A model generated the notes under the pieces. It ran no database searches. It saw only the letters and a list, made by a program, of their open reading frames with translations, and was not told the origin of the DNA. The translations under genes and the position numbers were made by a program. A stretch of DNA of 64,000 nt from Escherichia phage vB_EcoM_PTE-Eco15, in the sequence record PQ352352.2. One strand, written 5' to 3'. Shown one piece after another: positions 8,263 through 9,361 of this stretch. The first letter of the stretch is position 1. Each line of letters starts with the position of its first letter.

Positions 8263-8451
8263 ATGAAAATTGAAGCACTCAATCAAGAAGGAAATATCTA
8301 CGTCATCATTAATGGTGATTTTTTCGTCGACATGGATGAAGTTACTAGTGAAGAACTTGTAGAACTTCTTAAGAAACGTTATAATATGTGTGATGAAGCT
8401 GCAACTCACATGGCGTGTGCAATATTCTCTCTTTCATATGTGGTGGAATAA
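8263..8451 (+). CDS. Hypothetical small protein (62 aa)
   Basis: GAGGAG Shine-Dalgarno then ATG at 8263. Confidence 0.5.
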
Positions 8452-8654
8452 TGATTAGTATCGAACAAGCTGATAAAATTAAGGAATTGGTAGCTTTAAT
8501 TCGTAAAGCAGACGAGGAGCGCATTAACTTTGCTTGGTATTCATCGGGTATTTCGAATAAAGGCATTAAAGACTTTGAAACTAAAGTGGATAATGCTTTA
8601 GAAGCGTTAGATATGTTTCTTGATGAAATTATCGATCATAATACGAGAGTTTAA
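8451..8654 (+). CDS. Small helical protein, paralogous family member
   Basis: [23 protein letters not shown]... Confidence 0.5.
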   Translation: MISIEQADKIKELVALIRKADEERINFAWYSSGISNKGIKDFETKVDNALEALDMFLDEIIDHNTRV

Positions 8655-8656
8655 GT

Positions 8657-8851
8657 ATGCTAACACGCGAACAGTTTGAAAAAATCATTAAATTAGCACG
8701 TGATATTGAAATAGATTCATATCAATTAGCAGTTGAGCATTGTGAAGGATATTCATACGACGGTATAGAAGCAGCTAAAAGAGATTTGGATAAATCCAAA
8801 GCTAAGTTAGTTCAATATCTTGAAATGATTAGGTGGAATAATGAAAACTGA
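8657..8851 (+). CDS. Small helical protein, paralogous family member
   Basis: MLTREQFEKIIKLARDIEID... Confidence 0.5.
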   Translation: MLTREQFEKIIKLARDIEIDSYQLAVEHCEGYSYDGIEAAKRDLDKSKAKLVQYLEMIRWNNEN

Positions 8852-9013
8852 AAAGCAGATGTTTTTAATGAAACTAATTGAAGAATATGCTAATGCAGTT
8901 TCTGACTATGAGTATTCTGCTCGGGAAAGAGGTACAGCTTTCGCAAAAGAAGAATTGAAAATCATGGTTGATGCTCACACAAAGCTTCAGAATTTTATTG
9001 AAAACGTCATTTA
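8841..9013 (+). CDS. Small helical protein (57 aa), paralogous family member
   Basis: ATG at 8841 overlapping the upstream stop; MKTEKQMFLMKLIEEYANAV... Confidence 0.4.
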
Positions 9014-9015
9014 AT

Positions 9016-9045
9016 GGTTTACAAGTTGGCAAGGTTATGGTATAG
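9016..9045 (+). promoter_or_regulatory. Early promoter
   Basis: gtttacaag...tatggtatagt; near-identical to the promoter at 45833. Confidence 0.55.
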
Positions 9046-9074
9046 TAATCTTGTCAACTGCCAAGGAGAAGAGA

Positions 9075-9179
9075 ATGAAAGTTTTGTTTGTTGTGTATGT
9101 GATGATTCAATATAATTACCCAATGTTTACTTATAATCTGGTGAACAACATTATTGATATTATTCAAAGGAGTATGTAA
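9075..9179 (+). CDS. Possible 34-aa hydrophobic peptide
   Basis: Strong Shine-Dalgarno (aaggagaag) then ATG; MKVLFVVYVMIQYNYPMFTYNLVNNIIDIIQRSM. Confidence 0.3.
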   Translation: MKVLFVVYVMIQYNYPMFTYNLVNNIIDIIQRSM

Positions 9180-9361
9180 TGACCCGTGAACAAGCCAATA
9201 AGTTGATGGACCTTATTCATGACTTACGTGAAGCCGATACCGATTTAAATGATGTGGCTTATCACGCAGTAAATGATGGCGCTGCTGATTTCTATGAAAA
9301 ACAGGTTGACGCTCGCCAGAACGATTTAGTGAATTTTGTTGAAACTTTAATTGGTGAATAA
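9179..9361 (+). CDS. Small helical protein, paralogous family member
   Basis: MTREQANKLMDLIHDLREADTD... Confidence 0.5.
   Translation: MTREQANKLMDLIHDLREADTDLNDVAYHAVNDGAADFYEKQVDARQNDLVNFVETLIGE

Follow-up and report, generated by a model that had tools for sequence, protein, structure and literature searches.

What do the very small genes that surround the thymidine kinase gene (tk) of a T4-like phage encode, and do they belong together? T4 is the best-studied large lytic phage, and about half of its genes are without known function. We addressed this question in a window of 64,000 nucleotides (nt) from Escherichia phage vB_EcoM_PTE-Eco15 (PQ352352.2), which is the whole stretch of DNA that was analyzed. 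Its part from 6200 to 9700 was 99.3% identical to Escherichia phage slur03 and 95–99% identical to several hundred Tequatrovirus genomes, identifying the window as that of a T4-like coliphage (Tequatrovirus). An earlier note, made from the sequence alone, had grouped six open reading frames (ORFs) between 6447 and 9361 as a family of diverged copies of a tiny helical protein and had suggested that they are binders with diversifying targets, perhaps host proteins. All six ORFs were present, the fifth ending at 9014 with its stop codon included and not at 9013; they were lettered A to F in order and named by comparison with T4, RB69 and slur03. Judged from their sequences, five of the six (A, C, D, E, and F) go back to ancient duplications within one small-protein family that is restricted to phages, DUF7438, and ORF B, which is rI.1 of T4, is not a member.

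Family membership of the small ORFs

All five ORFs scored well above the gathering threshold of 25 bits against the Pfam model of DUF7438 (PF24219, 57 positions; scores in Table 1), with E values ranging from 1e-15 to 1e-19. The T4 protein Tk.1, included as a control, scored 55.6 bits. The matches covered positions 1–57 of the model (1–56 for copy E) in single-domain proteins of 57–67 amino acids (aa), and the five copies were distributed over the related PHROGs 653, 2758, and 4859. The members are acidic, with isoelectric points (pI) of 4.3–5.3 and net charges of −2 to −10.

The copies are highly diverged. Pairwise identity among them was just 20–34%, and some pairs were insignificant by BLAST (C versus E, E = 50; D versus E, E = 30), as would suit a chance resemblance that unrelated small ORFs owe to a shared helical or low-complexity composition. 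We therefore ran a leave-one-out control, in which a hidden Markov model (HMM) was built from the other four window copies and the left-out sequence was scored against 1000 composition-preserving shuffles of itself. The real score was equalled by none of the shuffles for copies A, C, D, and F and by 4/1000 for copy E. When each orthologue group was compared with the remaining family by hhalign, the probabilities were 97–98.5% for A, C, D, and F (E = 1e-11 to 1e-15) and 81.6% for E (E = 1e-5), and the predicted helix boundaries of copies D and F coincided. Together with the Pfam E values, these results refute a chance resemblance for the five ORFs, for which we regard it as vanishingly improbable.

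For the ORF at 7266–7478, chance resemblance is the correct account, and similarity to the family was lost once composition had been controlled for. rI.1 had no DUF7438 match at E ≤ 1; it scored ~1 bit against the family HMM, ranking 70th among the window ORFs, and 157/1000 of its shuffles reached that score. The hhalign probability was 0.4%. With a pI of 10.2 the protein is basic, and it belongs to a different PHROG. Pfam, shuffles, and hhalign thus ruled out rI.1 as a sixth member, and the family described in the earlier note holds for the other five ORFs. A 12-nt string common to rI.1 and copy E, AACTGAAAAGCA, which encodes TEKQ, was a chance-level match.

No additional DUF7438 copy was found in the 64-kb window with either a 5-sequence or a 35-sequence HMM. 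There was also no nucleotide-level repeat between the copies, so the duplications must be old, and a recent duplication at the DNA level was rejected. In a filter-free HMM search over 1.84 billion representative proteins, the family proved to be small (30 clusters at E ≤ 0.001). Members were found in Tequatrovirus, Mosigvirus, Gaprivervirus, and T4-like phages of Edwardsiella and Enterobacter, and the N4-like phage IME11 has one (51 bits) in its early region; seemingly bacterial entries stemmed from phage-sized contigs. Domain fusions were discarded as a clue to function, as the few longer proteins were read-throughs, chimeric contigs, or engineered deletions. The early region of IME11 also carries two copies of another small family, DUF7279 (2935–3141 and 3795–3980; E = 9e-21 and 7.5e-10), and early regions may generally hold families of tiny proteins in several copies.

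Both the paralogy and the family are already on record in Pfam and PHROGs, and no new kind of system is involved. The T4 members of DUF7438 and PHROGs 653, 4859, and 2758 are tk.1, tk.2, mobD.4, mobD.3, and mobD.2a; four of the five window copies were 54–98% identical to named T4 genes, and the window proteins were identical or near-identical to public entries. The annotation table of the CRISPRi-ART study groups T4 tk.1, tk.2, mobD.3, and mobD.4 in phrog_653 (PMC11879866 supplement). In the literature, we found no paper mentioning DUF7438 and none treating mobD.2a, mobD.3, or mobD.4 in its main text; searches for these names also turned up no study of function.

Predicted fold and the conserved half of the hairpin

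The earlier note had proposed a structure prediction as a check, and we modeled copies D and F as single chains by AlphaFold2 with family alignments. Both models were antiparallel two-helix hairpins, with helices at 4–29 and 34–63 in copy D (predicted local distance difference test (pLDDT) 94) and at 3–28 and 33–59 in copy F (pLDDT 91.5). From these models, the members are predicted with high confidence to be single antiparallel hairpins of ~60 residues with the topology and size of ColE1 Rop. Taken jointly, we hold the statements on the identity and the fold of the family to be nearly certain.

Rop is a plasmid copy-number regulator that functions as a homodimeric four-helix bundle and binds RNA kissing complexes. 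It was the best full-length solved fold for the predicted model (1rop; template modeling (TM) scores 0.86/0.92, root-mean-square deviation 0.9 over 56 residues) and has the same length and helix boundaries as the family. The proteins could accordingly be pictured as Rop-like binders of RNA (or DNA), dimeric hairpins modulating, for example, the stability or translation of early mRNA, and their genes do lie where early transcripts processed by RegB are abundant, mobD.5 being mentioned in this connection (PMC1702504). We consider this reading quite improbable, on account of the missing sequence tie to Rop and of the charge and surface of the proteins. There was no Pfam Rop match at E ≤ 1, and homology to Rop was rejected on an hhalign probability of 0.1% for the family alignment against a Rop sequence that may not be exact. 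Besides the acidic character of the proteins, column 9 is the family's only consistently basic position, and the surfaces conserved in a paralogue-specific manner are hydrophobic rather than polar or basic. What may carry over from Rop by analogy is its homodimeric four-helix bundle, the arrangement that we infer for the DUF7438 proteins.

Foldseek returned no significant structural match (all E > 0.01) and no evidence of homology, and its best viral matches were uncharacterized proteins of other T4-like and Salmonella phages. A sequence search of solved structures yielded nothing below E = 0.07. Next to Rop, Aqs1 of Pseudomonas phage DMS3 was the other best full-length solved analogue, and its match (6v7u/6v7v; TM 0.67–0.78, E 0.9–1.8, 18–23% identity) was no better than those to many unrelated hairpins. 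Aqs1 is a small phage helical hairpin that is made on entry, is dimeric in solution, and inhibits host LasR and PilB via separate surfaces (PMC13436744). It is the nearest functional analogue of the mechanism proposed below, although it comes from another phage lineage with another host, and nothing in the evidence ties DUF7438 to quorum sensing or pili.

To locate conservation within the hairpin, column entropy was computed per orthologue group in an alignment of 127 family proteins. Within-group entropy was ~0 at columns 6–21 and 50–60; together, these columns make up that half of the hairpin in which both termini meet. At many columns of this terminal half the consensus residue varied by paralogue (F/K/I/M/M at column 11, I/D/V/Q/V at column 53), and the paralogue-specific conserved positions included surface ones. 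Large hydrophobic residues occupied columns 10, 11, 13, 14, and 17 of the first helix side and columns 52, 53, 55, 56, 59, and 60 of the second, giving at least 3 hydrophobics per heptad in the terminal half versus 2 in the tip half, which is acidic. The tip itself is the variable part, polar and acidic and tolerant of substitutions and indels. Since the hydrophobic load of the terminal half (5–6 large residues per helix) exceeds what two helices would bury, this half would form an oligomer interface or a partner-binding surface. The terminal half would therefore be the working surface, with a specificity that differs between paralogues. The strong conservation within orthologues, seen as ratios of nonsynonymous to synonymous variation (pN/pS) of 0.12–0.30, and the paralogue-specific surface positions are in favor of distinct specificities.

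Gene strings, expression signals, and selection

The family members lie on the + strand, the direction of early transcription in T4, in a locus in which tk and rI could be identified (Table 1).

Table 1. Positions of the small ORFs, neighboring genes, and putative expression signals in the window
Feature	Position	Strand	Details
Copy A, tk.2-type DUF7438 paralogue	6447–6632	+	61 aa; Pfam 69.6 bits; phrog_653; directly upstream of tk; GTG start overlaps preceding stop codon (GTGA)
tk, thymidine kinase	6642–7223		
B, rI.1 of T4 (non-member)	7266–7478		No DUF7438 match; PHROG 1826
rI	7491–7784		
Terminator hairpin	8172–8189 and T run	+	Terminator scan; feature region 8172–8236
Early-promoter-like site	8205–8234	+	GTTTAC (8205–8210), 18-nt spacer, TACTAT (8229–8234); read by eye, not called by scan
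Copy C, mobD.4 orthologue	8451–8654	+	67 aa; Pfam 59.8 bits; start overlaps mobD.5 stop (TAATG)
Copy D, mobD.3 orthologue	8657–8851	+	64 aa; Pfam 63.3 bits
Copy E, intact form of T4 mobD.2a	8841–9014	+	57 aa; Pfam 57.5 bits; phrog_2758; overlaps 3' end of copy D by 11 nt
Sigma-70-type promoter-like site	9018–9046	+	TTTACA, 17 nt, TATAGT; upstream TG
Copy F, without T4 counterpart	9179–9361	+	60 aa; Pfam 55.7 bits; phrog_4859, also phrog_653 (6e-13); start overlaps mobD.2 stop (TAATG)
Phage tudor-domain protein	9351–9629		Pfam PF24144, E = 2.7e-40; between copy F and mobD.1
mobD, HNH homing endonuclease	10248–11027		Borders family cluster

Copy D was the most conserved member (98% identity to T4 MobD.3). 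Copy C was 79% identical to T4 MobD.4, which lacks 7 codons, in frame, at the tip of the hairpin. Copy A was 54% identical to T4 Tk.2 and 30% identical to T4 Tk.1, and copy F was 82% identical to an RB69 gene annotated as 'tk.1'.

A Shine-Dalgarno sequence precedes each member of the family, and every start touches or overlaps the preceding stop, either as GTGA or TAATG or through the 11-nt overlap. The GTG start of copy A was shared by slur03, IsaacDaniel, and pSe_SNUABM_01; in other relatives, this codon is ATG. An identical 13-nt string comprising a Shine-Dalgarno sequence and ATG, GGTGGAATAATGA, lies ahead of copies C (8442–8454) and E (8832–8844), and the frame of the upstream gene in which it sits differs between the two places. 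Its recurrence could reflect a convergent translation-initiation context or micro-homology used in gene shuffling.

The terminator/promoter-like stretch at 8172–8236 is identical in T4. Going by the published consensus, its promoter-like site would belong to the T4 early-promoter class and, downstream of the terminator, would head a mobD.5-C-D-E transcription unit. The second promoter-like site was the best match of the region (10/12 positions) and lies ahead of mobD.2-F-tudor-mobD.1.

Selection was assessed from pN/pS per gene over up to 17 related sequences. The ratios were 0.14 for copy D, 0.12 for E, 0.19 for A, and 0.30 for C, compared with 0.09 for tk and 0.22 for mobD.5. Because these values are comparable to those of the neighbors, and because of the Shine-Dalgarno sequences and the overlapping stop and start codons, we conclude that the copies are real protein-coding genes under purifying selection, arranged in translationally coupled strings behind putative early-type promoters. 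The most variable stretch was the center of mobD.4, which had a pN/pS of 0.60 versus 0.08 in helix 1 and also carried in-frame indels; relaxed constraint would account for this variability at the tip no less well than diversifying selection would. In none of the genes or their sub-regions was pN/pS clearly above 1. A lone value of 1.13, at the end of mobD.3, is based on almost no substitutions (pS 0.019), and positive selection was rejected. The substitution ratios thus speak against active diversifying selection, and the variation consists mainly of gene presence or absence and allele replacement.

Variation among relatives and a possible role

As the earlier note had proposed, copy number was compared between relatives. 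Across 17 related loci, the tk-to-mobD.1 locus held 3 to 6 copies. Two haplotypes occurred upstream of tk, one with just the window-type tk.2 and one with both the T4-type tk.2 and tk.1, and the two tk.2 alleles were ~54% identical between flanking genes that were 97–100% identical. Compared with T4, the window lacks tk.1 and carries the other tk.2 allele, and it has an intact mobD.2a and the extra, RB69-type copy F, which is missing from T4 along with the tudor-domain gene.

The slot of copy F was compared between the window (9179–9361) and two further loci (L001, 4480–4665; L003, 5001–5180). It is empty in T4, holds an RB69-type allele in the window, and holds a 34%-identical allele in slur03, RB27, RB7, PYPS2T, and Manna. 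Between the window and slur03, despite their overall identity, divergence started just after the ATG and ended at a 28-nt 3' stretch, TTGAAACTTTAATTGGTGAATAATATGA, a sequence that the window, slur03, and RB69 share without a difference and that also holds the ribosome-binding site of the next gene. These breakpoints mark the F slot as a clear case in which an entire gene was exchanged as a cassette through recombination at conserved junctions between genes.

Copies have also been damaged. Reference T4 mobD.2a (38 aa; T4 locus 2497–2678) is a frameshift of the 57-aa gene caused by a 1-base-pair deletion; the remainder still aligns downstream, and the gene is intact in the window and most relatives. 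The T4 annotation used by HIDEN-SEQ gives mobD.2a as 174 nt, so that the frameshift in the reference could be specific to a strain or stem from an error in sequencing. In Paracelsus, tk.2 is split.

Other genes around the family vary as well. The tudor-domain gene was present in slur03, RB7, and PYPS2T and absent from RB27 and Manna. The HNH endonuclease mobD was present in the window, T4, RB7, and pSe_SNUABM_01 and absent at the same position in slur03, IsaacDaniel, RB27, Paracelsus, SCS4, PYPS2T, and Manna. The macro-domain gene tk.4 (5398–5865) had 56% identity in two IMG/VR loci, constituting a divergent allele, and an ORF at 6274–6450 (phrog_3452) had 54–57% identity in four loci and was absent from T4. 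Where tk.4 and this ORF diverged, tk, rI, and rI.-1 remained 97–100% identical.

In T4, loss of these genes is tolerated. CRISPRi-ART rated tk.1, tk.2, mobD.2a, mobD.3, and mobD.4 all as 'Not Fit' (PMC11879866 supplement), HIDEN-SEQ classed each of them as 'Non-essential' (10.1101/2025.11.20.689424 supplement), and a genome-reduced T4 without nrdC.11-mobD.3 was viable (PMC9825161). The accessory nature of the family is supported by these screens and the deletable nrdC.11-mobD.3 region, the 3–6 copies per locus, and the frameshifted copies of T4 and Paracelsus, and its mobility by the IME11 member and the breakpoints of the F-slot allele swap.

The absence of a fitness effect, the frequent loss, frameshifting, and allele replacement of copies, and the flanks with promoter/terminator junctions and the homing endonuclease mobD would all be expected of functionless or selfish filler ORFs riding the recombination cassettes of a hyperplastic region. 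Such ORFs, however, should hardly be under purifying selection like that of neighbors of known function (mobD.3 0.14 and mobD.2a 0.12, beside tk 0.09) or be conserved across genera and into another phage family, and we regard this explanation as very improbable.

The public labels of copies C and F and of related records are misleading. 'Molybdopterin-guanine dinucleotide biosynthesis protein MobD' had no support from Pfam or NCBIfam and seems to stem from confusion with mobD as a gene name of T4. 'Helicase loader', found on PHROG 4859 and several RefSeq records, was likewise without Pfam or NCBIfam support and appears to be an inherited annotation. Copy F was rejected as a helicase loader, DUF7438 being its sole Pfam match; NCBIfam gave no matches. 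The helicase loader of T4 is gp59, which is much larger and unrelated.

Were that label correct, it would suit adaptors of the phage's own machinery, such as nucleotide metabolism or replication complexes. The gene neighborhood is compatible with this, as members adjoin tk in T4, RB69, and Gaprivervirus RZ, all of them scanned, and, by its 'tk.1' annotation only, in Edwardsiella phage PEi20. Such adaptors seem unlikely to us, however, given the unsupported label, the dispensability of all members for T4 growth, and the IME11 member, which has no tk or T4-type replication genes nearby.

The reading that we prefer is a binder mechanism, in which the proteins would be early, dispensable, dimer-forming adaptors, each with its own host or phage partner. 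The terminal hydrophobic half would either bring two hairpins together in a four-helix bundle or hold a partner protein, and each paralogue would have its own binding specificity. The proteins may act early as accessory adaptors or inhibitors of host proteins, possibly of defense, or of phage proteins, and their number and allele set would be reshuffled between phages via recombination at conserved gene junctions. By analogy with Rop and Aqs1 this mechanism is plausible, but we propose it tentatively, at slightly less than an even chance; the whole statement of five DUF7438 paralogues with their fold and binder mechanism appears to us evenly balanced.

Several points weigh against the binder mechanism. 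The conservation of the terminal half could partly reflect gene ends that overlap the ribosome-binding sites and start codons of neighbors. A two-helix hairpin is the simplest fold, and its structural matches all had E > 0.01. That three T4 screens saw no fitness effect is compatible with redundancy and equally with a marginal function. Finally, PADLOC returned noise only, with no match to a known defense or anti-defense family.

A bolder version of the binder mechanism, which we consider possible though doubtful, is a cassette-exchanged arsenal of early inhibitors, whose terminal half would neutralize different host or anti-phage defense proteins in each paralogue. If so, the lack of a phenotype in three genome-wide T4 screens would be accounted for by redundant copies and by the laboratory hosts used, and the occurrence of the family in T4-like and N4-like coliphages would make it a counter-defense currency common to enterobacterial phages.

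In itself, the presence of five DUF7438 paralogues is an ordinary, already catalogued feature of these phages. The analysis narrows the candidate working surface of the family to the terminal half of the hairpin, and it shows that constraint acts on every paralogue separately and that phages which are otherwise nearly identical differ in the number and the alleles of these genes.

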